Below, in pieces: positions 17,130 through 63,206 of a stretch of DNA of 64,000 nucleotides (the stretch's first letter is position 1; each line of letters starts with the position of its first letter). The notes under the pieces are model-generated. The model saw nothing but the letters and a program-made list of their open reading frames with translations. It had not been told where the DNA came from and made no database searches. This DNA is from Shigella phage Sf20. The position numbers and the translations under genes are program-made. Location of the stretch: the sequence record MF327006; one strand, given 5' to 3'.

Positions 17130-17152
17130 TTTAAGCCTCCCATATAACAGAA

Positions 17153-17181
17153 AACGGGGCTAGTATAAAACTAGTCCCCGT
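17153..17181 (-). terminator. terminator hairpin downstream of alt
   Basis: ACGGGGCTAGT...ACTAGTCCCCGT stem-loop with T-run on the - strand. Confidence 0.5.
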
Positions 17182-17207
17182 TTGAGTCAACCATTATTTC
17201 TTAAAAA

Positions 17208-19333
17208 TTACATTTTAAATTTATCTGGCATTGCGTCTACAGATACCAGGTCAGCGATAAGCTGACGTAGAGTTGCCTTATCTGCTTTCTTACGTTCGGT
17301 TTTAGCTTCGCTAATGAAGCTGGAGAAAGACAGGTCAGAAGCAGGTTTAACAACACCTTCACGGATGAATGCATCACCGTCCGCGATCATCTCGCCAGAT
17401 TCTTGTAATGCTGCCAGTTCATTTTTGTTCATAATATGTGCCTCAATGTAATAAGTTTCTTGTGAATCCGTCGATGCCGTAGCACGAGTTACCGTATCAA
17501 AGGATAACACAACACCGCGAGGAAGTAAAATCTCGCATTCTTTGTAAGCAAATGCTTTGTTACCTACTGGCAAGACAGGGATGTTTTCCGCGCCAGCAAT
17601 GGAGAAAGCAACATTAGCGCCACCTTCACCGCGAGAGCCAGCCATAGAATCAACACCAGCAACGGCACTAGCCACGTTTGCATTCCAGCCGCCAAAAATT
17701 CACCGCGAGAGCCAGCCATAGAATCAACACCAGCAACGGCACTAGCCACGTTTGCATTCCAGCCGCCAAAAATGTTAGGTGCAAGGGAAGTGCTCACATA
17801 GTTTTTAAAGTAAAACGCTTTTTGCTTACGTGCAGTTTCCCACATTTGCGACCGGAAGTCCATACCACGATACAGAATAGTACCCGGATCAAGTTTAACA
17901 CCATAGTTAGAGAAGGCATTATCCAGTGCATCGCACATCTTGACCAATTCTTCTGGATCTGCGATTCCCTCAAACTCTTCCAGCTTACGATCAGTTAGGA
18001 AGTTGTTCATATTGATGTATGCTGCATCGGCATATTCGCTCAACACAAAACCTTCCGCGCCTGGCAGATCAAGATCAATATCTGCCATCATTTCACCCAT
18101 GTTGCTAGCAATTGCTTCAAACATACCGGAGGCAACATTACGTAGGGCATCGGTTTTAATCTGGGTGATATGACTACGCAGCATTTCAGCTTTTACATCT
18201 GCTGGCATAGACTGGTCTACTCGATCCATTGCCAAGGCGGTGATCTTGTTTTCGAATACTTCCTCGCTCATGATTTCTTTTAAGCGTTTGACCGAGGCTG
18301 CGATAACTTCCGCAGACAATGGGTCATATTGATCCTGAACTTTTACCAGTTCGCTTACTGCGTATTTTGCATCGGCTTCGCTTTCAAAAATAGTACGCAT
18401 GAAACCATAGCGAGTGATAATATCACTTGTCCAGTCATTCAGAGAACGGGCGGTTGAACGTTCTAAGGCTTGACGGTCAATCAGAGTATTAAACTGTTTC
18501 TTAGGTTCTGCTTCGGTGATATCTTCTTCCGGTTTAAGATTAATTTTTTCTGGATGATTCACATAGTCGCTGTTATAGGTCGCTTGAGTTTTCAGCATTT
18601 CTTCTTTAGTCAAACGAGATTTAGCCGCTACGCGTTGTTCTGCTTCCGCGTTTCGTTCTTCTTCTGACACAAGACTAGCCGCATACGCCTCATCTTTAGT
18701 CAGAGATTCACCAGTAGCCTTAGATACCCAGCGATCACCTAAATCACTTTCTACTTTAGTGAACAAGGATTCATCAAGTTTAATCCCTTTAATCTTATCA
18801 ATCGCCATCCCGCGACGCTTGACAACAACTAAAGCGATCTTTTTGCTGGTCATTACTTCCTGCTGGAATACTTCAAACTTCGGTGTACGACGCACCAAAC
18901 GCTCTATAACGCGCTTAACCAGTTCGGTCTTACCTTTCATGCGGGATACGTTAAAACGGAACATAACAGCGTCTAATTGAGCTTTACGGGCTGTTTCCAT
19001 AACCACATCAAAAGCACTTGCCATAACTGCAATCGGGTTATCGCCTAGACCATTTTTAAGCTGTATAATACGACCGCTTTTGTTCATTTCGCACAGTACA
19101 ACATGTGCGGTCTTGTCACCCATACGAATGATTTTAGGTGTTTTGTTGGTGAAGTTGCAAAGACGGACAATCACATCTTTATCGCGTGTCTGTACTGCAA
19201 AAAGCTGTTTAGGATTCTGCTTAGGCTTTAAGCACTGTACAGGAGCAATACTGCCAAAGTTTTCTTCCTCTTCCGTCAACAGCCATTTCTCGAAAGATTC
19301 AATCATTAGATCGTCGATTTCTAAGTTAAACAT
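17208..19333 (-). pseudogene. alt: alt ADP-ribosyltransferase, reading frame split by a 74-bp tandem duplication (ORFs 17564..19333 and 17208..17675)
   Basis: Upstream ORF ends ...FKNYVSTSLAPNIFGG...VAGVDSMAGSRGE then garbage; downstream ORF begins ASAVAGVDSMAGSRGE... and carries ECEILLPRG; removing one repeat copy gives a 684-aa protein (T4 Alt is 682 aa). Confidence 0.75.
17625..17772. repeat. perfect tandem duplication, 2 x 74 bp (17625-17698 and 17699-17772)
   Basis: Unit TTCACCGCGAGAGCCAGCCATAGAATCAACACCAGCAACGGCACTAGCCACGTTTGCATTCCAGCCGCCAAAAA repeated head-to-tail; 74 is not a multiple of 3. Confidence 0.9.
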
Positions 19334-19400: not shown

Positions 19401-19401
19401 A

Positions 19402-19614: not shown

Positions 19615-19650
19615 TTGATACTCCTTAGTAGTTCGTTTCGGTATGTGTGC

Positions 19651-19679
19651 ATTATAGGGGATCACCGATCCCCTGTCAA
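19651..19679 (-). promoter_or_regulatory. early sigma70-type promoter with palindromic spacer (stem-loop type)
   Basis: On - strand: TTGACA, 17-nt spacer GGGGATCGGTGATCCCC (perfect palindrome), TATAAT; A-rich UP-like tract upstream. Confidence 0.55.
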
Positions 19680-19686
19680 CAACTTT

Positions 19687-20241
19687 TTAGTTATTTTTTA
19701 ATTGTTCATCTTGCAATAATGCAATCACATGCTGGCGATGTTCTTCCGATTGAGGTACACCGAAAAAGTTTGTTTTGTAGAAATACTCTAATCGGTCTTC
19801 TCGTGTGCTCTCTTCCATCATGATCGCGGGTAGTCCGAGATTTCGGAAACGTCGCTTTTCTGCTGGCGTAAAATCACTGTAATACAACATAGAATCATCA
19901 TTACAAGCAATGCTAAACTCATCCTTCATAAAGGAGAATATTGCGTTTAAACGCTGTTTACCGTCCACGATTTCGATCTCATAGCGAGAGCCATCATCAA
20001 TCTTAGCCATTGCGATAGCACCAACCGGAAAATCATTAATCAGGTTTTCAATAAACATACGTTTGTTTTCGGTGTCCCATACTAAAGGACGCTGATAATC
20101 TGGGTTCATGTTGATATAGCCATCTTCTAACCATGCTTCGTAAACAGAGATAACAAAGTTTTTAGTATTGGTATAGTAGCGGCGTTTAGGCGTTAAACGG
20201 TTCATGTTATAGTCTCCTGAATGGGTCATCACGTAAATCAA
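19687..20241 (-). CDS. DUF262 (ParB-like nuclease superfamily) domain protein
   Basis: DYQRPLVWD and IVDGKQRL motifs resemble the DUF262/GmrS N-terminal domain signature (DGQQR). Confidence 0.55.
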   Translation of the reverse strand: MIYVMTHSGDYNMNRLTPKRRYYTNTKNFVISVYEAWLEDGYINMNPDYQRPLVWDTENKRMFIENLINDFPVGAIAMAKIDDGSRYEIEIVDGKQRLNAIFSFMKDEFSIACNDDSMLYYSDFTPAEKRRFRNLGLPAIMMEESTREDRLEYFYKTNFFGVPQSEEHRQHVIALLQDEQLKNN

Positions 20242-20536
20242 TATCTTTTAAGAACTCATCCCATGAATGGCGGATATTGTTCTTAATTCTCCAGATGAGC
20301 GCAGGGATTGAACGCTCTCCCATCTGGAAGTATGGATCATATGATCCGTATGCCCAATATGCTACTACAATTCCACAATCAGAGCAATAGTATTCTATTT
20401 CACTTGCTGGCGACCAAAGTCCATCAATATGATCGGTGATCTTGCTTTCGATGTTATGGCTATGACAATCAGGGCAACGGATGCAATGACCTTGTTTATC
20501 GTAATTTGACGTTAGCGAATACTTAAACAATCTCAT
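20207..20536 (-). CDS. zinc-ribbon protein (two CxxC pairs)
   Basis: CIRCPDC...CSDCG; overlaps the downstream gene start, operon-like. Confidence 0.45.
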   Translation of the reverse strand: MRLFKYSLTSNYDKQGHCIRCPDCHSHNIESKITDHIDGLWSPASEIEYYCSDCGIVVAYWAYGSYDPYFQMGERSIPALIWRIKNNIRHSWDEFLKDIDLRDDPFRRL

Positions 20537-21252
20537 TATAGATCCTTATTTGCTTCAAATACTGCCTTTGCGAATCCTCGCGGGGTAAGTGACCTTATAG
20601 TCTTTGTTTTCGTTCCTTTCCCGCCTAGCTTAGAATGCTGTTTACTGTACCCTTTATTAATCTGCAACGGTTTCTTTTCTGGCATTATAAAGCCTTGTCC
20701 GGTCCATAAGCAAGTCTTTTTTGGGTACATATCACGGGCGGCAATATACTCAGGAAACGTAGGATGCTTATCATCTTCCGGCAAATAACCGCCATATTCC
20801 CACGGATGGAACATATAATCAGGCTTACGCCACATGCTAGAGATAACGCTTACAGGATTCTCTATCATGTAGGGAACTCCTAGCCATTCACCCAAATAAG
20901 CGGTTATTTTAGCTGCCCGTACATCATGAACTTGAATCAATGGTCCTTGTTCTCGTTTCTTTCGTTCAAAGTGCGCAGCGCCACTAACAGCTAAATTGGT
21001 GCACGGTGGGAATGCAAAGATAATATCCGGTTTCCCCCATTCAAGGTCCATTGCTCTTTCCAGCCAGTTCAAATCAATCCATGTGTTTACATAGGTAATG
21101 TTTGGATGTTCAAATCTGGTATTATACTTTTTGTATGTGCCGTGGTCGCCATCATCAGCATTAAAGCAGATCACCTTATGACCTGCTTTAGCCCATTCTA
21201 GCCCCATTATCCCCGATCCGTCAAAGTTACAGAATATTAATTTTTGTTTCAT
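20536..21252 (-). CDS. DNA cytosine-5 methyltransferase-like protein (catalytic core only)
   Basis: Motif I-like FDGSG, motif IV-like PPC (catalytic Cys), motif VI-like ENP, with spacing typical of C5-MTases; no large target recognition domain. Confidence 0.45.
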   Translation of the reverse strand: MKQKLIFCNFDGSGIMGLEWAKAGHKVICFNADDGDHGTYKKYNTRFEHPNITYVNTWIDLNWLERAMDLEWGKPDIIFAFPPCTNLAVSGAAHFERKKREQGPLIQVHDVRAAKITAYLGEWLGVPYMIENPVSVISSMWRKPDYMFHPWEYGGYLPEDDKHPTFPEYIAARDMYPKKTCLWTGQGFIMPEKKPLQINKGYSKQHSKLGGKGTKTKTIRSLTPRGFAKAVFEANKDL

Positions 21253-21494
21253 ATACGCCCCTTTAATCCAACACAGATTTTAGAAGGTTCTTTGCCGTGC
21301 CACATTAAGTAAAGTCCGTTAATGCGGCCTTGTTTTGTATATGATTCTTTTCTGATCTTCTTATAGTGTCGTGTTTCCTCAGCCGATTGTTTAGAATACC
21401 AATCATAAAGGAAGATGAACAAAGGCCACCCATTAGCGGCCTTAATGCAGTTATTCAAAAATTCCTTATTGCGTTTAATTAATTTTCTTTTCAC
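21249..21494 (-). CDS. hypothetical protein (81 aa)
   Basis: ORF translationally coupled to the MTase-like gene. Confidence 0.4.
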   Translation of the reverse strand: MKRKLIKRNKEFLNNCIKAANGWPLFIFLYDWYSKQSAEETRHYKKIRKESYTKQGRINGLYLMWHGKEPSKICVGLKGRI

Positions 21495-21742
21495 GCTGCC
21501 CCCATTGGTTTGATAGTAACAGAATCTAAAAGACCTTTGTTAGCCAGTTCGCGGCAAGTTTTCAGATCCGCAACTTCCCAACCAGCCGCAATCAGGTTAT
21601 CAATCAGGCTGTTAGCAACTTCTTCGCTCATGAAAGAGCACTGTTTGCCGATGGTGTAGCGTACACGCTGTAATTTCAGTTTACGGAAGCCTTTAACGTT
21701 CAGGTCTTTAGCGATTTTCTTTGCGGTTTCGATGTTAGCCAT
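21491..21742 (-). CDS. hypothetical protein (83 aa)
   Basis: ORF with GGAGAATCAAAC RBS and promoter upstream. Confidence 0.45.
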   Translation of the reverse strand: MANIETAKKIAKDLNVKGFRKLKLQRVRYTIGKQCSFMSEEVANSLIDNLIAAGWEVADLKTCRELANKGLLDSVTIKPMGAA

Positions 21743-21782
21743 TGTTTGATTCTCCTAAGTGGTATCTCGTCTTGATGGTTGT

Positions 21783-21811
21783 ATTGTAGGGGAGTTATCC
21801 TCCCCTGTCAA
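21783..21811 (-). promoter_or_regulatory. early promoter with stem-loop spacer
   Basis: - strand: TTGACA, spacer GGGGAGGATAACTCCCC, TACAAT. Confidence 0.5.
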
Positions 21812-21825
21812 CACTTTTTATAAAA

Positions 21826-21993
21826 TTATTTGTTAATTTCTGGTGCGTTGCTAGGATAGTAACCTTCTTTAACACCCAGATATTTTGCAACCATCCCTAC
21901 AATCTTCTGTGCTACTACAATGTCAAATTTCAGATAATCTTCGCCGTGGGTTTCAATGATATATGCTTCACATGCTGCTTTAGTCTCGAACAT
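21826..21993 (-). CDS. small hypothetical protein (55 aa), paralog of 25593..25760
   Basis: MFETKAACEAYIIETHGEDYLKFDIVVAQK... ~85% identical to the 25593 copy; GGAGAATCAAA RBS; below the ORF-track cutoff. Confidence 0.5.
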   Translation of the reverse strand: MFETKAACEAYIIETHGEDYLKFDIVVAQKIVGMVAKYLGVKEGYYPSNAPEINK

Positions 21994-22026
21994 TTTGATT
22001 CTCCTATTTCGTTTCGTTATGTGTGT

Positions 22027-22055
22027 ATTATAGGGGATCTCCCGATCCCCGTCAA
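22027..22055 (-). promoter_or_regulatory. early promoter with stem-loop spacer
   Basis: - strand: TTGACG, spacer GGGATCGGGAGATCCCC, TATAAT. Confidence 0.5.
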
Positions 22056-22069
22056 CAACTTTTTTAAAA

Positions 22070-22351
22070 TTATTCGTGATTAGTTTCGATGTTGTGCATT
22101 TTGCACCAGTTCAGCCAATCACCCAGATCCTGATAGTTAATGCTTTTATCTGCTGCCATCGTTTTTGTCTTGATACCCATATGTGCGTTATGAGTAAGCA
22201 TTTTTACAGTGAACTCAATTTTATCACCTTTAGCTTTAACATCAACCAGTTTGGTCCACTGGCTACCAGCGCCGCGAATGTTCATACCAACGATGTTTCC
22301 GATGTATGCTTCTTTGTTTTTCAGGATTTCGGTTGCTTTGATGAATTTCAT
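22070..22351 (-). CDS. hypothetical protein (93 aa)
   Basis: ORF behind its own promoter and RBS. Confidence 0.45.
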   Translation of the reverse strand: MKFIKATEILKNKEAYIGNIVGMNIRGAGSQWTKLVDVKAKGDKIEFTVKMLTHNAHMGIKTKTMAADKSINYQDLGDWLNWCKMHNIETNHE

Positions 22352-22372
22352 TTTTGATTCTCCAGTTCGTTT

Positions 22373-22401
22373 CGGTATGTGTGTATTATGCTATGTTCTT
22401 A
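22373..22401 (-). promoter_or_regulatory. early sigma70-type promoter
   Basis: - strand: TTGACA, 17 nt, CATAAT, A-tract upstream. Confidence 0.45.
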
Positions 22402-22421
22402 CTTTGGTGTCAACAACTTTT

Positions 22422-22691
22422 TTAGATATTTTCAGAAATAAATTTTAAAACTTGACGTAAATGTTTCTCATCTTTGATAGTCGCCGGAAGTTCTTCTTTT
22501 ACTTCCTGTGCAAGATAGATATTTCCGTTCCAAGTGAAAGATCCGTCTTCGTTTACGCGATAGCTGAACATCCACTCGCAATCATTTTCGATTTCATATA
22601 CACACAGAAGGGTGTAATCGTTAAAGCTATTGATTTCAAGGTCGAAGCCGTGACGTTTTGCAAAGTTGGTAGTGGTTTTAGTCAGAGCCAT
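22422..22691 (-). CDS. hypothetical protein (89 aa)
   Basis: ORF with AGGAGAATCAAACA RBS. Confidence 0.45.
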   Translation of the reverse strand: MALTKTTTNFAKRHGFDLEINSFNDYTLLCVYEIENDCEWMFSYRVNEDGSFTWNGNIYLAQEVKEELPATIKDEKHLRQVLKFISENI

Positions 22692-22728
22692 TGTTTGATT
22701 CTCCTAAATGGTATCTCGTTTCGATGGG

Positions 22729-22757
22729 TGTATTATGCTATAGGCCGGATCTGGTGT
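22729..22757 (-). promoter_or_regulatory. early sigma70-type promoter
   Basis: - strand: TTGACA, 17 nt, CATAAT; conserved leader CATCGAAACGAGATAC. Confidence 0.5.
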
Positions 22758-22767
22758 CAATGCCTTT

Positions 22768-22797
22768 TTTAAAAAAGCCGACACTAAGGTCGGCACA
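22768..22797. terminator. terminator hairpin GCCGACACTAAGGTCGGC (same hairpin recurs near 23270)
   Basis: Perfect 6-bp GC stem flanked by A-run and T-run. Confidence 0.5.
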
Positions 22798-22799
22798 TT

Positions 22800-23111
22800 T
22801 TAAAAATTCTTGCTATATATGCAAGCCTCATAATCTAGAGGATGACCGCCAATCCTACCCGGCTTAATATTCCAACCGCATCGATATTTGCTGACCATGC
22901 TAACAGTTTCGGTTCTTAGAGCATTTCTTTGCAAATCATACCCCCTAAATTCTTGTCTATAAGGACAGTCCGCTTTGCAAGTTGGCGGTTCTACGTCATT
23001 TAGAGGGTCGGAAGCAGTTGGCTTTATTATCAATTCTTTGTTTGCAATAATCATAAGCACATCCCATTGAAGACAATTTAACATCTTCGCAATAAGTGTT
23101 GAATCCGTCAA
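22800..23111 (-). CDS. hypothetical Cys-containing protein (start uncertain)
   Basis: ORF overlaps the upstream gene by >100 nt; true start probably internal. Confidence 0.3.
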   Translation of the reverse strand: MTDSTLIAKMLNCLQWDVLMIIANKELIIKPTASDPLNDVEPPTCKADCPYRQEFRGYDLQRNALRTETVSMVSKYRCGWNIKPGRIGGHPLDYEACIYSKNF

Positions 23112-23187
23112 ACACGATCACTTCGTATTTGACTCCATCAGCGATAGCTTTTACTTTATACCATCCATGCTTGTATAAAATCTTCAT
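22996..23187 (-). CDS. hypothetical protein (63 aa)
   Basis: GAGGA RBS; promoter upstream. Confidence 0.45.
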   Translation of the reverse strand: MKILYKHGWYKVKAIADGVKYEVIVFDGFNTYCEDVKLSSMGCAYDYCKQRIDNKANCFRPSK

Positions 23188-23304
23188 CTTTATTTCCTCG
23201 ATCTCGTTTCGATGGGTGTATTATGCTATAGGCTAGACCAGGTTGTCAACAACTTTTTTAATTTTTTGGAAATAAAAAGCCGACACTAAGGTCGGCTAAT
23301 AAAA

Positions 23305-23613
23305 TCATTTAGACAAGTAATCATTCTGTGCAATACGGTCGGCGTATGCTGGTGTTATGTCAATCGCCAGCACTTTAACGCGTGCTTTCTTGCGACCTGG
23401 GTTTTCTCGTAACCAGTGCTCATGACCGTGAACATTTTTATACTTTGATGCTTCTTCAAATGTACGGATCGGACCTGGGTAATCAGCGTAAAGGATCTCT
23501 AGGTCTTCGGTGATGTAAAAATATACATCGTAATTACTGTTCTCTAGTTTAAGCAGAGAGTTGCGAAATTGTGGTAAATTCTCGCGGGTAAATTCAACTA
23601 CAAGATTTTTCAT
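23305..23613 (-). CDS. HxHW-motif family protein, copy 1
   Basis: HGHEHW...VKVLAIDI shared with five neighbouring paralogs. Confidence 0.5.
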   Translation of the reverse strand: MKNLVVEFTRENLPQFRNSLLKLENSNYDVYFYITEDLEILYADYPGPIRTFEEASKYKNVHGHEHWLRENPGRKKARVKVLAIDITPAYADRIAQNDYLSK

Positions 23614-23663
23614 AGTGATATCCTCATTCAGATAGATTAAAAGGGGGCTTAACGCCCCGTATA

Positions 23664-23951
23664 TTAAAACAGTCCTTCCTGTACACCGTAGTAGAGTTCA
23701 TCGCTGATAATTTCATTAATGCGACGGTGTGCATATTCCTGATTTGCGAAGTTATCAGCAAGTTCTACTTTAGTTTCGCCGTCATGAGTCCATTTAGTGA
23801 TAACTTTACCATCTGCAAATTTGAAGTTGAACTCTTTAGCTACTGCATCGCGTACCAGACGTGCGAACTTGTTGTTACGGATTGCATTATCGGTTTCGTG
23901 TGCAGCGTGAGCGAATTTGTTAACTTTCAGAGTGATAGTAATGTATGCCAT
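23664..23951 (-). CDS. hypothetical protein (95 aa), AKEFN-motif family
   Basis: LVRDAVAKEFNFKF resembles LIREVRKALAKEFNTKI of 26978..27289. Confidence 0.45.
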   Translation of the reverse strand: MAYITITLKVNKFAHAAHETDNAIRNNKFARLVRDAVAKEFNFKFADGKVITKWTHDGETKVELADNFANQEYAHRRINEIISDELYYGVQEGLF

Positions 23952-24032
23952 AATTTGATTCTCCTAGTTAGAAAGTGTATCTCGTTTCGATGGGGATATT
24001 ATGCTATATCCCCGATCCGGTGTCAACACTTT

Positions 24033-24311
24033 TTATAAAATAATTTTTTGATATTTTTCTATGATGTTCGTGTAAGTCACATCAACCGCTAGCACCGTTG
24101 CTTCGAATCCACCGTTTAGCCAATGGCTATGATCATGATCGTGAAAGAAACCTAGACCAGTACGAAGACCTTCTTTATATTCTGCGCGTACATTCAGTTT
24201 GTCGTCGATAAACAGATAAAACCATGAATTTTTACTAGGATTGATGATACAACCTTTCAGATTAGGGAGAATATCACGACTAAGAATAAACTTATCACCT
24301 ACTTTGAGCAT
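24033..24311 (-). CDS. HxHW-motif family protein, copy 2
   Basis: Internal start MLKVG with GAGGAAA RBS; HDHDHSHW...TVLAVDV. Confidence 0.5.
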   Translation of the reverse strand: MLKVGDKFILSRDILPNLKGCIINPSKNSWFYLFIDDKLNVRAEYKEGLRTGLGFFHDHDHSHWLNGGFEATVLAVDVTYTNIIEKYQKIIL

Positions 24312-24325
24312 AATATTTTCCTCAC

Positions 24326-24634
24326 TTATAAAGTTTGACCGTTGTTTTTCGCGTAATGCTGAATGCGTGCTTGATCTGCTTCCGCTGGTGATAGATTCCA
24401 TGCGATCACTACAACTTCTGACGCATCATGATCATTATCACTTACCCAATGATTATGATTCATACAATTGTTTGCTATCGCGTGAGCAAATGATCTCATT
24501 ACCGGAGACGTATAATCATAGTAACGGATTTTCAGATTTTCATCAACGTACAAGTAGATCGTATACGGCTTATATTCAGTAACCAGTAACAGACAGTTAC
24601 GCAATTCTGGGAAAATCTTTTTAGTTAATTTCAT
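24326..24634 (-). CDS. HxHW-motif family protein, copy 3
   Basis: Internal start MKLTKK with GAGGA RBS; NHNHW...VVVIAWN. Confidence 0.45.
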   Translation of the reverse strand: MKLTKKIFPELRNCLLLVTEYKPYTIYLYVDENLKIRYYDYTSPVMRSFAHAIANNCMNHNHWVSDNDHDASEVVVIAWNLSPAEADQARIQHYAKNNGQTL

Positions 24635-24635
24635 T

Positions 24636-24854
24636 TTATAATCCTCGGTCGCGGCTATAGTAAACGGTACGCCATACAATTTCATGTTTCGTGTCGCTCC
24701 AGCACACGATCTCATTTACTCTTAAATCTTTGTTATCAACAAAAGATGAACATTGTGACGCTTCTTTCATCATTTTATCTGCTGTTTTCTCATCAAATAC
24801 AGCACAGATTTCTTTATACACTCGATAATCTTTGAATTGACTCTGAATACCCAT
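24636..24854 (-). CDS. hypothetical protein, KMMKEAS family copy 1
   Basis: Paralogous to 24814..25077 (SQFKDYRVYKEI...KMMKEASQC); start uncertain. Confidence 0.4.
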   Translation of the reverse strand: MGIQSQFKDYRVYKEICAVFDEKTADKMMKEASQCSSFVDNKDLRVNEIVCWSDTKHEIVWRTVYYSRDRGL

Positions 24855-25077
24855 AATTAACACCATTCCAACCAATTGTTTTTGAGAAAACGTTTATCCA
24901 CTGTTGAGTGTAACATGTTTCTTTCCATGATACAATACGAGTAGAATAATGGTTTTTGTTTCCAGAAAAGGACGGGCATTTTGATGCATCTTCCATCATC
25001 TTTTCGGCGAACTCTGGTGCGTATACTCGCAGGATCTGTTGATATGCTTTGTATTCTTTAAATTTGCTCATAATCAT
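24814..25077 (-). CDS. hypothetical protein, KMMKEAS family copy 2
   Basis: SKFKEYKAYQQI...KMMEDASKC. Confidence 0.4.
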   Translation of the reverse strand: MIMSKFKEYKAYQQILRVYAPEFAEKMMEDASKCPSFSGNKNHYSTRIVSWKETCYTQQWINVFSKTIGWNGVNYGYSESIQRLSSV

Positions 25078-25336
25078 TCACTACCTTATCAGCTTCTTTT
25101 GTTGTTTTTACATCAACTGCGATAACTCGTAAAGGTTCGTCATGGTTCCACCAGTGGTCATGAATATCAGCTTGTGATTTATCACCAAAGGAATCACGAA
25201 TATCATTTTTACATTTATAGCTAATGTGACCTTCATAGTCAACATAAAGGTAATTATCGAAAATCGGCGTTTTTAAGATCATACCGAAAAATCTTTCTTT
25301 GTGTGTCTTATCCAGCGTTGCAGTAATTCGCATCAT
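25058..25336 (-). CDS. HxHW-motif family protein, copy 4
   Basis: IHDHWW...RVIAVDV. Confidence 0.5.
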   Translation of the reverse strand: MMRITATLDKTHKERFFGMILKTPIFDNYLYVDYEGHISYKCKNDIRDSFGDKSQADIHDHWWNHDEPLRVIAVDVKTTKEADKVVNDYEQI

Positions 25337-25592
25337 AATATATTCCTCTTAGAAAGGGATGGTCATTTCTTGAGCTTGTACGTTCTCGTTAGGATTAAAC
25401 TTCATCCAGCCGATATTGTCTACCAGCATATGCACATTTTTATCATATCCTACGTGGGTAGTCAATACTGTATGTGCTTTACCTTCAATGATGAGTTCCA
25501 TGTACTTCTGAACTTCGATAGCTTTCATTTTGATTCTCCGTTTGTTGTCTTGATGGGAGTATCTTACTACTCCCTTTAATCATTGTCAACTA

Positions 25593-25760
25593 TTATTTGT
25601 TAATTTCTGGTGCGTTGCTCGGATAGTAACCTTCTTTAACACCAAGATATTTTGCAACCATTCCGGTGATCTTCTGTGCTACTACGATATCGAATTTCAG
25701 GTAGTCTTCACCGTGGTTTGCTACAATGTACGCTTCGCATTCTGCTTTAGTCTGGAACAT
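25593..25760 (-). CDS. small hypothetical protein (55 aa), paralog of 21826..21993
   Basis: MFQTKAECEAYIVANHGEDYLKFDIVVAQK...; internal start directly downstream of a palindromic-spacer promoter. Confidence 0.5.
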   Translation of the reverse strand: MFQTKAECEAYIVANHGEDYLKFDIVVAQKITGMVAKYLGVKEGYYPSNAPEINK

Positions 25761-25804
25761 TTTTGATTCTCCTATATCTCGTTGGTATGTGTGCATTATA
25801 GGGG

Positions 25805-25833
25805 ATCGGTGATCCCCTGTCAACAACTTTATA
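25805..25833 (-). promoter_or_regulatory. early promoter with palindromic spacer
   Basis: - strand: TTGACA, GGGGATCACCGATCCCC, TATAAT. Confidence 0.55.
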
Positions 25834-26122
25834 ATGCTTTATATGCGTATTTCATAAATTTGTCTGCCACTTCATTGGCATGTTCAGATTCTACGCCTGA
25901 TTCGAGAACAATAGCTAGGTCGGTTTCGTCATTCCCGCCGTACCAATGATTTGATGTTCGATTTTTTTCAATTGGAAAGTGGTCACTTTTATCTGTGCGA
26001 CAAAATACATCTAAATGCTCGTCGATGTAAAAGATCCAATCTTCATAAAGAATAACGGTATTAGCAAGATTTTTATTGCCTTCAACGAAAGGTTCGGCTA
26101 CAAACAAATTAGTATGTTCCAT
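25829..26122 (-). CDS. HxHW-motif family protein, copy 5
   Basis: Internal start MEHTNLF with GAGGAAAA RBS; TSNHW...LAIVLESG. Confidence 0.45.
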   Translation of the reverse strand: MEHTNLFVAEPFVEGNKNLANTVILYEDWIFYIDEHLDVFCRTDKSDHFPIEKNRTSNHWYGGNDETDLAIVLESGVESEHANEVADKFMKYAYKAL

Positions 26123-26138
26123 AGTATTTTCCTCAAAA

Positions 26139-26330
26139 TTATACAGCTTCGTAAACTTCCCAATGTCCAACACCAGCACGCTTAACGAAAAGGTTTTCTT
26201 TGATGTTATTCATAAACGTCTGGATGGATTTAATGCGGTTTGAAGGTTTCCATTCTTCGTTGGCATTGCGTCGATACATCATAACATTACCAGTTCGCTT
26301 ATATTCAGCAACCATTTTAAGACCACACAT
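26139..26330 (-). CDS. hypothetical protein (63 aa)
   Basis: ORF in operon-like spacing. Confidence 0.35.
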   Translation of the reverse strand: MCGLKMVAEYKRTGNVMMYRRNANEEWKPSNRIKSIQTFMNNIKENLFVKRAGVGHWEVYEAV

Positions 26331-26387
26331 AATATTATCCTCAATTTGTGGGAGAGTATTACCCCTCCCAATGATTGTTATGTTATA

Positions 26388-26708
26388 TCACACAAAATGG
26401 CGTGTCAATGCTTCTTTTGCGGTTCCGCTAAGACTTTCGATCTCGCCTGGCATAACATCAACCGCCAGAACTTCTACAACATCCTCGGACCCTAACCAGT
26501 GAGTATGACCTTTGTAGAACTTGATAACCAGACTACCTTCCTCGTCCCATTTAACGCTATCGCTAGCCCACCACACATCACAGTCGATAAAGTTGATGTA
26601 AAGCACACTACGCCACATTGAATTAATTACTTTCAATATTGCGCCTTTCATCTCTTCCACGGTATGGTCTTCCATTTTGAAGACCTCACCTACCTGAACT
26701 TTTGCCAT
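26388..26708 (-). CDS. HxHW-motif family protein, copy 6
   Basis: GHTHWLGSEDVVEVLAVDV. Confidence 0.5.
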   Translation of the reverse strand: MAKVQVGEVFKMEDHTVEEMKGAILKVINSMWRSVLYINFIDCDVWWASDSVKWDEEGSLVIKFYKGHTHWLGSEDVVEVLAVDVMPGEIESLSGTAKEALTRHFV

Positions 26709-26725
26709 TTAGTCACCTCTCTTTA

Positions 26726-26905
26726 TTACATAACAATCACGCCAGCCGTTGAAAGTTGATGTTTCAACTGAGCATTTTCTGCTACCGTCAAATCAATGAT
26801 TTCTTGTGACGCTGCAATCATATAGCCATTGGTGATATTGTTTTGCATCAGTTCAATGGTTTCTTCGTTGTAGCGGATTTTAGCGATGATTTCGTTGAAG
26901 TTCAT
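26726..26905 (-). CDS. small hypothetical protein (59 aa)
   Basis: ATG with AGGAGAATCAATT RBS; promoter upstream. Confidence 0.4.
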   Translation of the reverse strand: MNFNEIIAKIRYNEETIELMQNNITNGYMIAASQEIIDLTVAENAQLKHQLSTAGVIVM

Positions 26906-26939
26906 AATTGATTCTCCTAGTTCGTTTCGGTATGTGTGT

Positions 26940-26969
26940 AGTATAGGGGAGTTTAACCTCCCCTGTCAA
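26940..26969 (-). promoter_or_regulatory. early promoter with stem-loop spacer
   Basis: - strand: TTGACA, GGGGAGGTTAAACTCCCC, TATACT. Confidence 0.5.
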
Positions 26970-26977
26970 CAACTTTT

Positions 26978-27289
26978 TTAAAGTTTTTCCATGATAACGG
27001 TCATAATTACATCTTCTGCGCGAGCGGTCAGATTATCAGCGTCAGCATGTGGGCGGTTGGTTGTTACAGAGATAACACCGTTGCGCACTGGTTTGATATT
27101 GATATCAAGATGATCCGCGAAACGTTCGCCAGTTACAGAATGAATTTTGGTGTTAAATTCTTTTGCCAGTGCCTTGCGAACTTCACGAATCAGGATAGCG
27201 TTTTTCAGTTGGTTCTCCGCGCTCATGGTCTTCTGGGTGTTCATGGTTCCGTCGAAGTCAATCATTGGCAGCGTTACGATGTATTTCAT
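26978..27289 (-). CDS. hypothetical protein (103 aa), AKEFN-motif family
   Basis: Paralogous motif with 23664..23951. Confidence 0.45.
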   Translation of the reverse strand: MKYIVTLPMIDFDGTMNTQKTMSAENQLKNAILIREVRKALAKEFNTKIHSVTGERFADHLDINIKPVRNGVISVTTNRPHADADNLTARAEDVIMTVIMEKL

Positions 27290-27334
27290 TTTTGATTCTC
27301 CGTTTAAGAAAGTGTGTTTCGTTTTGATGTGTGT

Positions 27335-27363
27335 AGTATAGGGGATACGTGATCCCCTGTCAA
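27335..27363 (-). promoter_or_regulatory. early promoter with palindromic spacer
   Basis: - strand: TTGACA, GGGGATCACGTATCCCC, TATACT. Confidence 0.5.
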
Positions 27364-27376
27364 CAACTTTTTTGAA

Positions 27377-27721
27377 TTATTTTTTCATGAGCTTAATGGC
27401 TTCTTCCATAGCCAGCACATTTCGATAGTTAGGGTATCGTGTTAGATCGTCATACATTCGCTTAAGGGTGGAAACTTCCTCAAACTCTGGGTTTTCTAGA
27501 TACAGTTGAACAAATTGTTTCTCTACCATCTCTGCTTTTAGCTTGTCTGCTTGTTCCTGTTCATATGATTTCGTTGGACCCAACACCAACAAAATGATAA
27601 AGGTGATCAACGGGCTAATGATCAATGATAGGATAACATAACCGATAACGCTACGGTTTAAACGGCTTGCATACATGCCTACCAGGAAAACAAAAAGGAT
27701 ATAGATAAACAGAAAGAACAT
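27377..27721 (-). CDS. membrane protein (two N-terminal TM helices)
   Basis: Hydrophobic N-terminal 50 aa followed by a charged coiled region. Confidence 0.5.
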   Translation of the reverse strand: MFFLFIYILFVFLVGMYASRLNRSVIGYVILSLIISPLITFIILLVLGPTKSYEQEQADKLKAEMVEKQFVQLYLENPEFEEVSTLKRMYDDLTRYPNYRNVLAMEEAIKLMKK

Positions 27722-27728
27722 ATAATGG

Positions 27729-35507: not shown

Positions 35508-35540
35508 CTTGATACTCCTTAGTTGTTTTGGTATGGGAGT

Positions 35541-35569
35541 ATCTTACTACTCCCGTGATATGCTGTCAA
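35541..35569 (-). promoter_or_regulatory. early promoter overlapping stem-loop GGGAGTAGTAAGATACTCCC
   Basis: TTGACA on - strand with hairpin in the spacer/-10 region; same hairpin recurs at ~25541 and ~62470. Confidence 0.4.
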
Positions 35570-35794
35570 CTGCTTTTTTATGCAACCGCAAACATCAACA
35601 TTTGAACATTCTTGGCTGTCTGGCTTTCAAAGTTCTGACATTCTTTGATAATGTCCTCTACTTTCTCGCCGGAGATCTCCGCGTAAGTTTCGATTGCCAT
35701 TTTCAGTACCGCGTCAAAGTTGTTCATTTGATTCTCCTTAAAGTGTATTTCGTTTCGATGGGGGTATATTACTACCCCCGTTTCATGCTGTCAA

Positions 35795-36013
35795 CTACTT
35801 TTTAATGACAAGTTCGAATTTTGCTACCTTGCGTCCTCGTTTATTGAAAGCAACCCACGGACGGTTTTCAATGTAGAACAATTCTTCACCAATAATGAAT
35901 ACTGGCTGATTGTAAAGGCGACCCATCAGGTCACGCTGGCGAATGGTAGTAGATTCGTATACTTCGCCTACTACAAAGTGCTTGCTGATAGAGTCGGTGC
36001 AAGTAAATTTCAT
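35795..36013 (-). CDS. hypothetical protein (72 aa)
   Basis: ORF with promoter cassette upstream. Confidence 0.4.
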   Translation of the reverse strand: MKFTCTDSISKHFVVGEVYESTTIRQRDLMGRLYNQPVFIIGEELFYIENRPWVAFNKRGRKVAKFELVIKK

Positions 36014-36082
36014 TTTGATTCTCCTTTGTTTCGTTTCGATGGGGGTATATTACTACCCCCGTTATTCAGTGTCAACTACTTT

Positions 36083-36301
36083 TTACTTGTTGTATTCATT
36101 CCACCATTGGGTTAGCTTATCAATTATTTTTGTGTTTCTATCCAACTTCTCCCACCGTTTTCTAGGGTTTATCAACCGGAATAGGTAAGGTGTACTTGTT
36201 AAGTGAACTCGGTCAATGTAGTGATTGATGTACTGCTTTTCGATTCTAAGTTTCATCTTTTTACGATGAAAATATGCAATGACTTGTTCTTCTGTTTCCA
36301 T
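36083..36301 (-). CDS. hypothetical protein (72 aa)
   Basis: ORF with promoter cassette upstream. Confidence 0.4.
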   Translation of the reverse strand: METEEQVIAYFHRKKMKLRIEKQYINHYIDRVHLTSTPYLFRLINPRKRWEKLDRNTKIIDKLTQWWNEYNK

Positions 36302-36402
36302 ATGTTCCTCCGTTTCGATGTGCGTATTATGCTATGGTAAGATCAGATTGTCAACACCCAATAACAAAAAAAGTCGCCACTATGGGCGACTTTGAACAAA
36401 CA

Positions 36403-38559: not shown

Positions 38560-38627
38560 AATAAAATCCTCACTTGTTTTTGATGGTTGTATTATAGCGG
38601 GGATTTCTCCCCGCGTCAACACTTATT

Positions 38628-40871
38628 TTACAGCTTGCAAGATGAGCACTCGCTAGCGTCTTCCGTACCATCTGCACCGTCGCGAACGTTCGCATAATAC
38701 AGGGTTTTCAGACCGTAATATTGAGCAAACAACATATCATCTAACACATCAGCAATATCGACTTTACCAGTCTTATAAGTGCTTGGATCGTATGATGTAT
38801 TGGAACTAATCGCCTGATCCACAAACTTCTGCATGATCGCTGCCAGTGTCAGATAGGGCTTGTTACCTTTCTTGATCAGTGTCCAAAGCAGGTCAATAAC
38901 ATCAGCATTATTCTCTACGTTCGGAATAACCTGATTAAATTGCCCTTCTTTCGATCCTTTAACCGATACAATCCCGCGAGGCGGTTCAATACCGTTTGTG
39001 CTGTTAGATACCTGAGAAGACGACTCACAAGGCATCAGAGCCGAAAGCGTACTATTACGAATGCCATATTTTTTCAGGTCTTCGCGCAGTTCTTCCCAAT
39101 CCATCTCATACACAGGATCAACCAGTTCATCTACTGTCTTTTTGTACCAGTCGATAGGCAGTTCACCGCGTCCATAACGTGTTTCGTGCATCAGTTCGCA
39201 AGCACCCTTCTCTTTAGCCAGTTGCACACTAGCCTTAATCAGAGCATATTGCAAGCGTTCAAACGTTTTATGCGTAAACTCGTTAGCGTCTTCATATGTG
39301 AAGAAATTATCCGCTAGATATGACGCAAAGTTAGTCACACCAACACCCAGAGAGCGACGTTTTTTGGCTGTCAGAGCTTGTTCTACAGGATAATCCTGAT
39401 AATCTAACAGGTTGTCAAGTGCACGCACCATAACCATAGCAATGCGTTCTACTTCTTCCATGTTTTCGATATCGAAATTACCTAAAACATATGCTGCCAA
39501 AGTACATAGGCTAATTTCTGAATCATCACGACCCATCGGTTTTGTAGGCAGAGCAATTTCACAACACAGGTTAGATTGTTTAATCGGTGCTACATTACGA
39601 ATAAACGCCCCGTGATTGTTCATGTTGTCTGTGAACGTTGGGTAGATTCGACCAGTGTTAAAACGTTCAATTGCCACCGCTAAAAACAGGTCTTCGGCTT
39701 TAACACGAGTTTTACGAACACTCGGATCTTTTTCCAGTTTTTCGTAAAGCTGGCGGAAACCTTCCTCATCTCGGAAGTATAGATCCCACAACAAGCCACC
39801 TGCAATATCTGGACTAAACAGAGTAATGTAATCCCGTTTAAGGAATCGCTCTACCATCAGGTTATTAATCTGTACGCCGTAGTCAAGATGGCGAATGCGG
39901 TTATCTTCCACGCCCTTATTGTTCTTTAACACAATCAGACTTTCAAACTCTAAATGCCACATTGGGTAATAGAGTGTCGCTGCCCCGCCACGAATACCGC
40001 CTTGTGAGCATGACTTAACGGCAGTCTGAAAATGTTTCCAGAATGGGATAACGCCAGTATGACGAACTTCACCATGCCCGATCTTAGATCCTTCCGCGCG
40101 AATCATGCCAGCGTTGATACCGATACCAGCACGCTTGCTAATATACTTAATGATTGCATTTGCGGTTTCATTAATACCCTGCAATGAGTCATCACTTTCA
40201 ATCACCACACACGAACTAAATTGGCGTGTTGGAGTACGCACACCCGCCATAATCGGAGTAGGCAGAGAGATTTGCTTATTCGCAACAGCATTATAAAAAT
40301 CAATCACATGTTCAAGTCGATTTTCTGTCTCTTCTTGATGCAAGCACATACCGATCAGCATATACGCAAATTGCGGTGTTTCAATGATTTTCTTAGTGCT
40401 GCGATCCTGAACAAGATATTTCTCTTTTAACTGCATCGCACCAGCATAGGTCATTTTAAAATCAAGTTTATGGTCGATGAATTTCTCCAGATATTCCACT
40501 TCTTCACGGGAATACTTTTGCAGAATTTCGCGATCATATTTTCCGGTTGCAATATTACGCTCAATATGGCTGTAAAAATCAATCGGTTGGAATTGACCGT
40601 ATACTGATTTGCGAAGCGCGAACATTGCAAGGTTACTTGCTACATATTGATAATCGGGTGTTTCTACAGTGATGTTATCTGCGGCGACCTTAATCAATAC
40701 TTTCTGGATATCATTGGTAGACATACCTTCTGTCAGAAGTGGTTCAACCATATCAAACAATTCATATGGATCAACGTTATGACCTTCGGCTGCCGCTTCC
40801 AGAATTTTCATCACTTTTTCTTTTTCAAACGGAACAGTCAGACCGGAAGACTTAACAACATTTTTAATCAT
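38628..40871 (-). CDS. nrdA: ribonucleotide reductase large subunit
   Basis: 747 aa; N-terminal ATP-cone, catalytic NLCCEI and C-terminal Cys pair CSSC. Confidence 0.9.
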   Translation of the reverse strand: MIKNVVKSSGLTVPFEKEKVMKILEAAAEGHNVDPYELFDMVEPLLTEGMSTNDIQKVLIKVAADNITVETPDYQYVASNLAMFALRKSVYGQFQPIDFYSHIERNIATGKYDREILQKYSREEVEYLEKFIDHKLDFKMTYAGAMQLKEKYLVQDRSTKKIIETPQFAYMLIGMCLHQEETENRLEHVIDFYNAVANKQISLPTPIMAGVRTPTRQFSSCVVIESDDSLQGINETANAIIKYISKRAGIGINAGMIRAEGSKIGHGEVRHTGVIPFWKHFQTAVKSCSQGGIRGGAATLYYPMWHLEFESLIVLKNNKGVEDNRIRHLDYGVQINNLMVERFLKRDYITLFSPDIAGGLLWDLYFRDEEGFRQLYEKLEKDPSVRKTRVKAEDLFLAVAIERFNTGRIYPTFTDNMNNHGAFIRNVAPIKQSNLCCEIALPTKPMGRDDSEISLCTLAAYVLGNFDIENMEEVERIAMVMVRALDNLLDYQDYPVEQALTAKKRRSLGVGVTNFASYLADNFFTYEDANEFTHKTFERLQYALIKASVQLAKEKGACELMHETRYGRGELPIDWYKKTVDELVDPVYEMDWEELREDLKKYGIRNSTLSALMPCESSSQVSNSTNGIEPPRGIVSVKGSKEGQFNQVIPNVENNADVIDLLWTLIKKGNKPYLTLAAIMQKFVDQAISSNTSYDPSTYKTGKVDIADVLDDMLFAQYYGLKTLYYANVRDGADGTEDASECSSCKL

Positions 40872-62433: not shown

Positions 62434-62507
62434 AATATATTCCTCAGTGTTTTGTCTTGATGGGAGTATCTTACTACTCCCTTAATCCGGTGTCAACTAC
62501 TTTTAAA

Positions 62508-62768
62508 TTATTTTCGCCATTCACCGGAAACAATAAAGTTTGTAAAGTGAACGTGGTCCGTGATAACGTCATTAAGTACCATATGCGGATATGCTTTAGT
62601 GTAATCACGTTTACGATCAGTCATCCAACCAACGAAAGTCGGTGCAAAGTACGGCACACCGTCAGATGATGCCATATTAAACCATTTATCAGCCATAAAT
62701 GCAGCCGCCCTAAGATTTTTAATTGAAGTAGTGCGACTAATTTCAAAAACTTTATCGGTAAAATTCAT
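62508..62768 (-). CDS. hypothetical protein (86 aa)
   Basis: ORF behind promoter cassette at ~62470-62500. Confidence 0.4.
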   Translation of the reverse strand: MNFTDKVFEISRTTSIKNLRAAAFMADKWFNMASSDGVPYFAPTFVGWMTDRKRDYTKAYPHMVLNDVITDHVHFTNFIVSGEWRK

Positions 62769-63028
62769 TTTAAGCCCCCCGCTCGTGCATTAATACGCAT
62801 TTTCTGCATAGCCATGATCTGGTTTACTGCTTCTTCTTTACGTTCTTGCGTGATAACGTGACCAGATTCCGTAAACTCTCCCGCAACTTCTTCTACGATC
62901 TCGCGAACTTGAGAACGTCCAAAGATGCGGTTTCCTTCGTAGCTCATAAATTCAGTCACTACTTGCTCGATAGATTTCATGTGATTCTCCTTCTTTCGTT
63001 TGGTATGGGAGTATAATACTACTCCCAT
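62765..63028 (-). CDS. hypothetical protein (87 aa)
   Basis: ORF behind promoter cassette at ~63015-63045. Confidence 0.4.
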   Translation of the reverse strand: MGVVLYSHTKRKKENHMKSIEQVVTEFMSYEGNRIFGRSQVREIVEEVAGEFTESGHVITQERKEEAVNQIMAMQKMRINARAGGLK

Positions 63029-63044
63029 TTCTTTACGTCAACAA

Positions 63045-63206
63045 CTATTTTAAATTATTTTCGACCTTCACCCATTCCGCGTATTCTTGCGCGGCTACTT
63101 TCGGATTTAGTCCGTCTTCGTACATTGCATCAAGTAATTCTTTGTCGGTGGGCTTATACCCTAGATAAGCCTCCACCTGATTTTTCCAAATTTTATACCA
63201 GTTCAT
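63045..63206 (-). CDS. hypothetical protein (53 aa from internal Met)
   Basis: Start chosen to abut the upstream gene stop; the ORF-track start has no RBS. Confidence 0.3.
   Translation of the reverse strand: MNWYKIWKNQVEAYLGYKPTDKELLDAMYEDGLNPKVAAQEYAEWVKVENNLK

Follow-up and report, generated by a model that had tools for sequence, protein, structure and literature searches.

Positions 19.6-27.4 kb of the 64,000-nucleotide (nt) stretch of Shigella phage Sf20 DNA analyzed here (sequence record MF327006; hereafter the window) hold, as judged from annotated relatives, the hyperplastic region that extends from the alt ADP-ribosyltransferase genes to gene 30 (DNA ligase). This interval corresponds to open reading frame (ORF) 185 through ORF211 of phage RB49, contains little besides small hypothetical genes, which lie on the - strand, and has the phi1-type gene arrangement, without ORF192. 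A DNA match search with bases 19500-27500 returned 97-99% identity to the RB49-type coliphages vB_Eco_SAP, TB34, RB49, and others, and on this similarity we assign the window to Krischvirus as an RB49-type T4-like coliphage. Many of the small genes are preceded by a repeated unit that a sequence-only reading of the window had proposed to be the cassette known from RB49-type phages as the "promoter-early stem-loop" (PeSL). That proposal proved sound with respect to the phage group, the region, and the correspondence to slots that have been tested by experiment. PeSLs were first defined in this same alt-gene 30 hyperplastic region, and the experiments reported for that region concerned PeSL193/192, PeSL206/205, and PeSL211/210 (Arbiol et al. 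2010, PMC2839356). The slots orthologous to the latter two are represented in the window by cassettes whose -35 elements start at 25823 and 27363, respectively. The repeated units are the PeSL cassettes already described, and their recovery here is a re-discovery in the original phage group and locus rather than the discovery of a new element.

Twenty cassettes, named by the start of their -35 element and collected in Table 1, were included in the analysis: the 17 copies cited in the sequence-only reading and three others (17190, 22413, and 36354). Direct reading and a consensus scan confirmed each of the 17 cited copies, all on the - strand, and the strings that had been quoted for them (five hairpins, the leaders CATCGAAACGAGATAC and ACCGAAACGAACTA, and the ribosome-binding site (RBS) GGAGAATCAAA) were all present. 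In the unit, an A/T-rich tract is followed by a promoter close to the TTGACA-N17-TATAAT consensus, a short leader rich in A and C, an RBS of the GGAG type, and a small ORF, which downstream of each of the 20 cassettes encodes 49-103 amino acids (aa). Between 19 and 39 kb, the consensus scan identified 14 sites with 11 or 12 of 12 matches to TTGACA-N16-18-TATAAT; 12 of them are cassettes, every one on the - strand with a spacer of 17-18 nt. A/T-rich runs such as aaaaaagttgTTGACA are present in almost every copy, and the upstream ORF ends ~10-40 nt away. A direct-repeat search grouped the units into overlapping families of 43-95 nt with five to nine copies each. The GGAGAATCAAA RBS occurs in 11 exact copies on the - strand, each located 48-62 nt after a cassette -35, where 0.7 matches per strand would be expected for the degenerate pattern. 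More diverged early promoters were found at 3193, 3765, 43475, 44328, and 45424.

The sequence-only reading had viewed a stem-loop within the promoter spacer as unusual for RNA polymerase contacts. RNA polymerase does not read the promoter spacer base-specifically. That a spacer palindrome would hinder the enzyme is also contradicted by reporter data, given that PeSL206/205, which is of the spacer-hairpin type, yielded ~13,000 Miller units and is thus a very strong promoter (Arbiol et al. 2010, PMC2839356). Mapped 5' ends are stated to agree with the predicted RB49 early promoter consensus (PMC1524935). A literature search for Krischvirus transcriptomics returned nothing relevant.

To characterize the stem-loops, the best hairpin was measured in each of the 20 cassettes by using a perfect-stem search against shuffled sequences together with z-scores of the RNA minimum free energy (MFE). 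The earlier description of the spacer as being itself the hairpin holds for seven cassettes (class A), in which the hairpin lies wholly within the 17-18 nt spacer and the A of TTGACA pairs with the T of TATAAT, as exemplified by AGGGGATC-GGT-GATCCCCT and AGGGGAG-GATAA-CTCCCCT. It fails for the remainder. Eight hairpins (class B) straddle the -10 element: the last part of the spacer serves as the 5' arm, TAAGAT, TAATAT, or CATAAT falls within the loop, and the 3' arm stops about 1 base short of where transcription is expected to start. Of the five strings quoted as spacer hairpins, two, GGGGGTAGTAATATACCCCC and GGGAGTAGTAAGATACTCCC, belong to this class; their loops hold the -10 (TAATAT or TAAGAT), and their 3' arms end at ~-1. 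Five cassettes, including 22760, 23249, and 63543, lack an embedded hairpin, and four of these five (class C) have a canonical terminator just upstream. The identical terminator hairpin reported for two units, GCCGACACTAAGGTCGGC, was indeed found at 22777-22794 and 23279-23296 as part of a ~95-nt direct repeat. These placements correspond to known subclasses of PeSLs, whose stem-loop is located in the interval from -35 to -10, overlaps a hexamer, is found upstream in the A/T-rich zone, or follows closely after the -10 (Arbiol et al. 2010, PMC2839356).

These palindromes far exceed chance expectation. A perfect stem of 7-9 bp, reached by at most 1% of shuffles, is present in 14 of the 15 hairpins; the fifteenth (17190) has a bulged stem that is under-scored by the perfect-stem search. 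RNA MFE z-scores for the 15 hairpins range from -3.5 to -7.0, and the class A and class B stems are short and G/C-rich, with energies of -9 to -14 kcal/mol. At least eight distinct arm sequences occur in the window (e.g., GGGGATC, GGGGAG, GCGGGGA, GGGAGTA, GGGGGTA, and GGGGATAT), all complementary to their partners, and relatives carry an additional arm type, GGGTGTAT, that is paired with its own complement. Compensatory double changes distinguish GGGAGTA/TACTCCC from GGGGGTA/TACCCCC, and again GGGGATAT/ATATCCCC from GGGTGTAT/ATACACCC, in which case one genome has a G.T intermediate. Two more such double changes separate the GGGGAG/CTCCCC and GGGGGA/TCCCCC stems of orthologous non-Krischvirus contigs (L011 at 1869 and L025 at 5229). 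Across relatives, loops vary freely whereas stems do not.

The same tendency was seen on scanning IMG/VR with a pattern in which the promoter and the G4/C4 ends were fixed and the inner stem and loop were left free. The free inner positions were paired in nearly all matches, which comprise 18 loci, mostly from two Krischvirus genomes, and are too few for large-scale covariation statistics. Note that in a pooled pair count over the -10-straddling cassettes, a control slid by -2 scored as high as the actual structure. This count is muddled because the CATAAT-type and TAAGAT/TAATAT-type stems pair in registers two columns apart, and the compensatory evidence for these hairpins is that of direct tallies for each subtype rather than of the pooled count. 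On the basis of these comparisons, we consider the stem to be under selection. One could instead regard the palindromes as functionless passengers in a promoter cassette that has spread by duplication, as might be argued from the fact that the cassettes are paralogous and are homogenized through gene conversion (e.g., in PTE-Eco09). We give this explanation almost no credence: several unrelated arms in different registers have kept perfect pairing while their loops vary, compensatory double changes separate orthologues as well as hairpin types, and the distribution of the hairpins is complementary to that of terminators, as described below. No Rfam family was matched at the gathering score on either strand between 17 and 39 kb. 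Many stems contain two GATC sites; GATC/Dam as a special feature of the stem was considered and dropped, given that GATC is 1.5-fold over-represented window-wide (351 occurrences versus 230 expected).

The position of the hairpin indicates which RNA is likely to contain it. Relative to the promoter hexamers, the hairpins occupy offsets of 5-23, 13/15-34, or -48 to -16, and they always end at or before ~-1. Assuming the usual spacing from -10 to +1, the hairpin would therefore be absent from the transcript of its own cassette and would be made only in RNA that reads through from upstream. Moreover, a canonical terminator is present within 70 nt upstream of none of the 15 hairpin-bearing cassettes and of four of the five hairpin-less ones (Fisher p = 0.001), a mutual exclusion that suggests interchangeability of the embedded hairpins and the upstream terminators. 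The PeSL211/210 stem-loop has been found to cut downstream lacZ expression about as much as rrnB T1 does (Arbiol et al. 2010, PMC2839356), and this hairpin, GGGGATCACGTATCCCC (27358-27340), is common to RB49 and the window. Judged by its placement, the hairpin is more likely to act in RNA that reads through from the gene upstream than in recognition of the promoter. An operator or repressor site was entertained as the principal function and rejected, on the grounds that hairpin register and sequence vary and that terminators can replace the hairpin.

Within read-through RNA, the class A and class B stems could act by termination, by pausing, or as a 3'-end barrier. If the last of these were the whole of their function, the stem-loops would, after read-through and processing, shield the upstream early mRNA from 3'-to-5' exonucleases and thereby determine how stable it is, rather than terminate its synthesis. 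The absence of a U-tract after class A and class B stems is consistent with such a role, as is the resemblance of these short, G/C-rich, and stable stems to stabilizers of the repetitive extragenic palindromic (REP) type; furthermore, the lacZ assay measures expression and not termination as such (PMC2839356). A hand tally of imperfect stems, with four sense-strand G.T wobbles versus one A.C mismatch, points weakly in the same direction. However, a drop in reporter activity about as large as that caused by rrnB T1 is not expected of a pure stabilizer, and the embedded hairpins appear to be interchangeable with genuine U-tract terminators. We therefore regard stabilization as the sole function to be unlikely.

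A comparison with related phages, to see if cassettes mark insertion boundaries, had been suggested as a check. Positions 18800-28300 were aligned to ten relatives by collinear dynamic-programming chaining of BLAST matches, which yielded 11 distinct indels. The outcome of the check was positive: six of the 11 have both ends at cassette junctions (chance 0.166 per event; P = 0.0045), namely those of ORF186, ORF192, ORF191, a 2.3-kb methyltransferase block, a ~500-nt twin-terminator block, and a 1.1-kb block. The alignments overlap at the junction by 42-98 nt in five of these six, as expected after crossover between two repeats, and by only 5 nt for ORF192 of RB49. The 22760 and 23249 cassettes constitute a ~95-nt direct repeat around a ~500-nt block that is absent in six relatives. 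In hybrid cassettes, the crossover maps to a point upstream of the hairpin (MIZ4), in the interval between hairpin and leader (JK32 and UPWr_E1), or inside the leader (PTE-Eco09). Because these points are scattered along the unit, they argue for homology-driven exchange rather than for a site-specific cut at the stem, and we favor a process in which the whole ~60-100 nt cassette would serve as homology without targeting of the hairpin. Mini-circles have been reported for ORF192 and ORF210 (Arbiol et al. 2010, PMC2839356).

Several genes in this region are noteworthy for their cassette-flanked positions or their relatedness. Positions 19687-21252 lie in the cassette-bounded 2.3-kb block that is missing from MIZ4 and encode three proteins. 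One is short, with GmrSD_N (DUF262) as its sole domain (E = 5e-20); another is a zinc-ribbon protein; and the third, of 238 aa, is a DNA (C-5 cytosine) methyltransferase according to the annotation of relatives and gave no Pfam match here. The genes at 21826-21993 and 25593-25760 encode 55-aa paralogues with 87% nucleotide identity, each flanked by cassettes. PTE-Eco09 carries a gene of the ORF205 type (that of 25593-25760) in the ORF191 slot (21826-21993), which indicates gene conversion between slots. Between 23305 and 26708, six - strand ORFs (at 23305, 24033, 24326, 25058, 25829, and 26388) encode paralogues of ~95-105 aa that are 17-35% identical and share an invariant His-Trp and, downstream of it, the hydrophobic segment ...V(L/I)A(V/I)D(V/I), which is conserved; they have no Pfam match. 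As judged by their sequences, these six represent an orphan family that has expanded locally within the hyperplastic region.

The loops of the hairpins provide evidence that the palindrome may also form as DNA. Where the GGGGATC/GATCCCC arms are identical, the 3-nt loops are found in reverse-complement pairs (GGT/ACC, TGT/ACA, and GGC/GCC). A census based on orientation-fixing 30-mers counted 73 GGT loops in 47 records, 53 ACC loops in 44 records, and two TGT and two ACA loops, each in two records; a GAT loop was not encountered in this census. Within one orthologous slot, GGT and ACC are about equally frequent across ~50 genomes. At the 25800-25818 slot (ORF206|ORF205), the loop is ACC in the window, GGT in RB49, TGT in 011D4 and Whisky, and ACA in SFHK24, and the ACA loop is also present in SSG23 (same-slot loop positions in relatives are L001 10130, L004 6319, L006 8680, and L029 401-430). 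Because TGT and ACA are single-copy in each genome, there is no paralogous donor for them. The simplest account of the loop pairs is a flip caused by template switching at the palindrome, along the lines of the classical quasi-palindrome model, and this would indicate that pairing of the arms as DNA takes place in vivo, if only now and then.

Pairing of this kind is relevant to an idea put forward by the authors of the 2010 study (PMC2839356), in which the GGGG...CCCC palindrome is a DNA-level target of a protein that starts cassette recombination or shuts the promoter. Such a protein might be a recombinase helper, an endonuclease VII-like junction nuclease, the neighboring HNH endonuclease, or an early-promoter repressor. 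The ends of the stem, a G-run and a C-run, are strongly conserved across hairpin types, the reverse-complement loops, with single-copy TGT and ACA in the same slot, suggest that the arms pair as DNA, and a gene for an HNH endonuclease (27729-28202) adjoins the region. Nevertheless, the hairpin occurs in three registers and is substituted by an unrelated canonical terminator in four of the 20 cassettes, as expected for an element that acts in RNA and not for an operator at a set position. Pairing is kept from type to type while the arms differ in sequence, the crossovers in hybrid cassettes show no clustering at the stem, and loop flips are expected from any short perfect palindrome during replication by template switching, without a function being required. 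For these reasons, a DNA-level protein target strikes us as quite improbable, more so than the stabilizer function considered above.

The RBS may contribute an additional regulatory element. Ten of the 11 positions of GGAGAATCAAA agree with the RegB/S1 consensus GGAGRAYARAA, which describes a single-stranded target in the translation initiation region of early genes, and an active RegB has been reported in the literature for RB49. A GGAG Shine-Dalgarno sequence precedes 17 of the 20 cassette-proximal genes versus ~2 of 12 operon-internal genes, most of which have GAGGA(A/T)AATAYT instead; these counts are not independent because the RBS belongs to the repeated unit. The cassette RBS may well double as a site of RegB/S1-type cleavage, by which expression would be shut off early. 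Going further, one might speculate that hairpin extrusion at replication forks actively seeds breaks or template switches through which the cassettes are shuffled, in addition to the presence of a built-in RegB/S1 site in the Shine-Dalgarno sequence; we consider this combination doubtful. If a RegB/S1 site is part of the cassette, then a captured gene would gain early expression, insulation, and timed shut-off at once.

We conclude that PeSL cassettes are, in all likelihood, compact intergenic modules in which a promoter, an insulator, a translation start, and recombination homology are combined. The A/T-rich UP-like tract and the sigma-70 promoter would fire on unmodified host RNA polymerase right after infection, as suggested by the sequence matches in this analysis and by the activity reported in the literature for orthologues. 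The G-rich/C-rich stem-loop in read-through RNA would attenuate or terminate transcription or block 3' decay, such that each small ORF is insulated, a step for which we draw on placement and on a single published lacZ test. The first gene would be translated from the unstructured A/C-rich leader and the GGAG(A/T)ATCAA RBS. Finally, homologous recombination by the phage would use pairs of cassettes in the same orientation as crossovers, and the genes between them would be deleted, inserted, or swapped with their regulation intact; comparative genomics in this analysis demonstrates this step, and mini-circles have been demonstrated in the literature.

Several observations weigh against this account. 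The class A and class B hairpins have no U-tract, with 0-3 T residues in the 8 nt after the stem as compared to a canonical threshold of at least 5. No class A or class B hairpin was listed in the terminator scan, in which only the four upstream class C hairpins qualify, and by canonical rules these embedded hairpins should be weak intrinsic terminators. The sole functional assay employed a lacZ plasmid and one stem-loop, and it does not distinguish termination from RNA processing or instability (PMC2839356). In addition, the 22413 cassette has neither a hairpin nor a terminator. Among the 11 indels, two have a cassette at one end only, and three have no cassette and overlaps of only 3-17 nt. 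The copies are related through descent and gene conversion, and counts over copies are consequently not independent. Lastly, GGAGAATCAAA has C and not A at position 8 of the RegB/S1 consensus, which is among the best conserved positions according to the literature on this site.

Table 1. Coordinates of the PeSL cassettes in the window (all positions are those of the 64,000-nt stretch)
Cassette (-35 start)	Class	Coordinates	Strand	Hairpin or terminator	Other features
17190		17130..17210	-	Bulged hairpin across -10, AAACGGGGACTAGT...ACTAGCCCCGTTT then TTTTCTG	Downstream of alt; RNA MFE -18.6 kcal/mol, z -7.0, strongest of all hairpins
19679	A	19615..19699	-	Hairpin 19674..19656, AGGGGATCGGTGATCCCCT	-10 TATAAT; promoter match 12/12; drives ORF185 homologue
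21811	A	21743..21831	-	Hairpin 21806..21788, AGGGGAGGATAACTCCCCT	Drives ORF190 homologue
22055	A	21994..22075	-	Hairpin 22050..22033, GGGGATCGGGAGATCCCC	-35 TTGACG; drives ORF191; junction is site of extra ORF192 in RB49
22413		22352..22433	-	Neither hairpin nor upstream terminator	Promoter, leader, and RBS present
22760	C	22692..22796	-	No embedded hairpin; canonical terminator 22794..22777, GCCGACCTTAGTGTCGGC+T6	Terminator in A/T-rich upstream zone
23249	C	23188..23298	-	Terminator 23297..23278, identical to that of 22760	
24026	B	23952..24046	-	Hairpin 24013..23992, GGGGATAT-AGCATA-ATATCCCC	-10 CATAAT
25589	B	25529..25605	-	Hairpin 25574..25555, GGGAGTA-GTAAGA-TACTCCC	-10 TAAGAT in loop
25823	A	25761..25840	-	Hairpin 25818..25800, AGGGGATCACCGATCCCCT	PeSL206/205 slot; promoter match 12/12
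26969	A	26906..26989	-	Hairpin 26964..26945, AGGGGAGGTTAAACTCCCCT	18-nt spacer
27363	A	27290..27383	-	Hairpin 27358..27340, AGGGGATCACGTATCCCCT	PeSL211/210 slot; same hairpin in RB49
35569	B	35508..35589	-	Hairpin 35554..35535	
35794	B	35728..35814	-	Hairpin 35779..35760, GGGGGTA-GTAATA-TACCCCC	
36075	B	36014..36095	-	Hairpin 36060..36041	
36354	C	36302..36395	-	Canonical terminator upstream, 36393..36370	
38619	A	38560..38639	-	Hairpin 38614..38597, GCGGGGAGAAATCCCCGC	-35 TTGACG
62496	B	62434..62516	-	Hairpin 62481..62462	
63041	B	62981..63061	-	Hairpin 63028..63005, 9 bp	-35 TTGACG
63543	C	63484..63585	-	Upstream terminator 63584..63562, AAGCCGATCCTTGTGGTCGGCTT+T-run	-35 TTGACT

Apart from the cassettes in Table 1, a promoter-like TTGACA-N17-TAACAT sequence is present at the end of an ORF at 26350-26408, with a TGGGAG-N10-CTCCCA hairpin downstream of the -10. 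This site may represent a fifth PeSL subclass in which the stem-loop follows the -10. A separate family of G/C-rich terminators, of the type AAAGGCGGGGATTATCCCCCGCCTTTT, is free of promoters and occurs at 15797, 19374, 30360, 33464, 35081, and 55398; the sequence GGGGCGTTAAGCCCC is identical at 19380-19394 and 23644-23658.

Two perfect tandem duplications were observed elsewhere in the window. The first, of 74 nt at 17625-17772, is located inside the alt (RNA polymerase ADP-ribosyltransferase) gene and is single copy in 58 of 58 relatives with a match, such that 401 query bases correspond to 326. Because 74 is not a multiple of 3, the alt ORF is cut to 589 aa as compared to the 2052-nt (~683-codon) RB49 gene. 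The duplication probably arose as an artefact of sequencing or assembly; alternatively, the phage would be a recent frameshift mutant. The second, of 332 nt at 51680-52311 (300-nt copies at 51680 and 52012), affects the gene for the proximal subunit of the long tail fibre (gp34), is absent in 58 of 58 relatives (1001 query bases correspond to 669), and is also frameshifting; an artefact is likely because the frameshift falls in a gene that should be essential. A 45-nt periodic repeat is additionally present in the tail-fibre region, where its seven copies (60-73% identical) span 49886-50965 and probably encode a structural motif that recurs in the gp34 protein. Finally, palindromic tetranucleotides are unevenly represented across the whole window (observed/expected of 0.25 for GGCC, 0.43 for CTAG, 0.58 for AGCT, 1.52 for GATC, and 1.51 for CGCG), a bias that suggests restriction avoidance in a phage that, like RB49, uses unmodified cytosine.

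The closest comparison is with the PeSLs of RB49 and phi1 (PMC2839356; Comeau et al. 2014, PMC4122927), which have the same composition, including a G(n)-loop-C(n) stem-loop whose position varies, the same preference for sites in hyperplastic regions upstream of small orphan ORFs, and the same association with indels; we note no essential difference. A word search of the 2010 paper (PMC2839356) found no mention of loop flips or inversion, of an either/or relation between hairpin and terminator, of a RegB/S1-like Shine-Dalgarno sequence, or of a breakpoint test in ten further genomes. The loop flips, the RegB/S1-like Shine-Dalgarno sequence, and the mutual exclusion of hairpin and terminator thus seem to be new but incremental. 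The window reveals no new principle, and the PeSL pattern holds in ten more genomes sequenced since 2010. Cassette-like units were also found in uncultivated viral contigs of 174 kb and 366 kb and in two short contigs, with the same spacer-hairpin and -10-straddling designs (L016 at 2084 and 3983, L017 at 1468 and 2200, L011, and L025). Among isolate phages, a near-identity search with L016 and a distant search with L025 gave no useful DNA match. The occurrence of such units in these contigs agrees with the wide distribution of PeSLs that was claimed in 2014 (Comeau et al. 2014, PMC4122927).

Canonical intrinsic terminators likewise have a G/C-rich stem of 7-9 bp and a loop of 3-6 nt at the 3' end of a gene, and among the cassettes, true examples with a T-run are those of the four class C units. 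Unlike intrinsic terminators, the class A and class B hairpins overlap a promoter, and the stem is followed by TATAAT/TATACT or ATCGAAAC. The early promoters of T4 also depend on host sigma-70 and have upstream A-tracts, and GGAG Shine-Dalgarno sequences with an A-rich run are RegB targets in that phage. Promoters of the RB49 type are closer to the Escherichia coli consensus than those of T4, with G at -33 (TTGAC versus TTTAC in T4) and T or C at -12. By comparison with the RegB-sensitive T4 sites, the cassette Shine-Dalgarno sequence, with its C at consensus position 8, is a candidate site.

Integron cassettes and lambdoid morons, with which the 2010 authors compared PeSLs (PMC2839356), similarly involve small genes, orphans for the most part, that carry their own expression signals along when they move. 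In contrast to integrons, PeSLs have no integrase or attC site and depend on general homologous recombination between repeated regulatory sequences. They differ from morons in that the regulatory sequences themselves are the vehicle of mobility (PMC2839356). The same authors argued that PeSLs are among the few tangible candidates for the "linker sequences" of Botstein and Campbell in modular phage evolution (PMC2839356). As such, they would account for the gain and loss of small accessory genes by T4-like phages with regulation unbroken.

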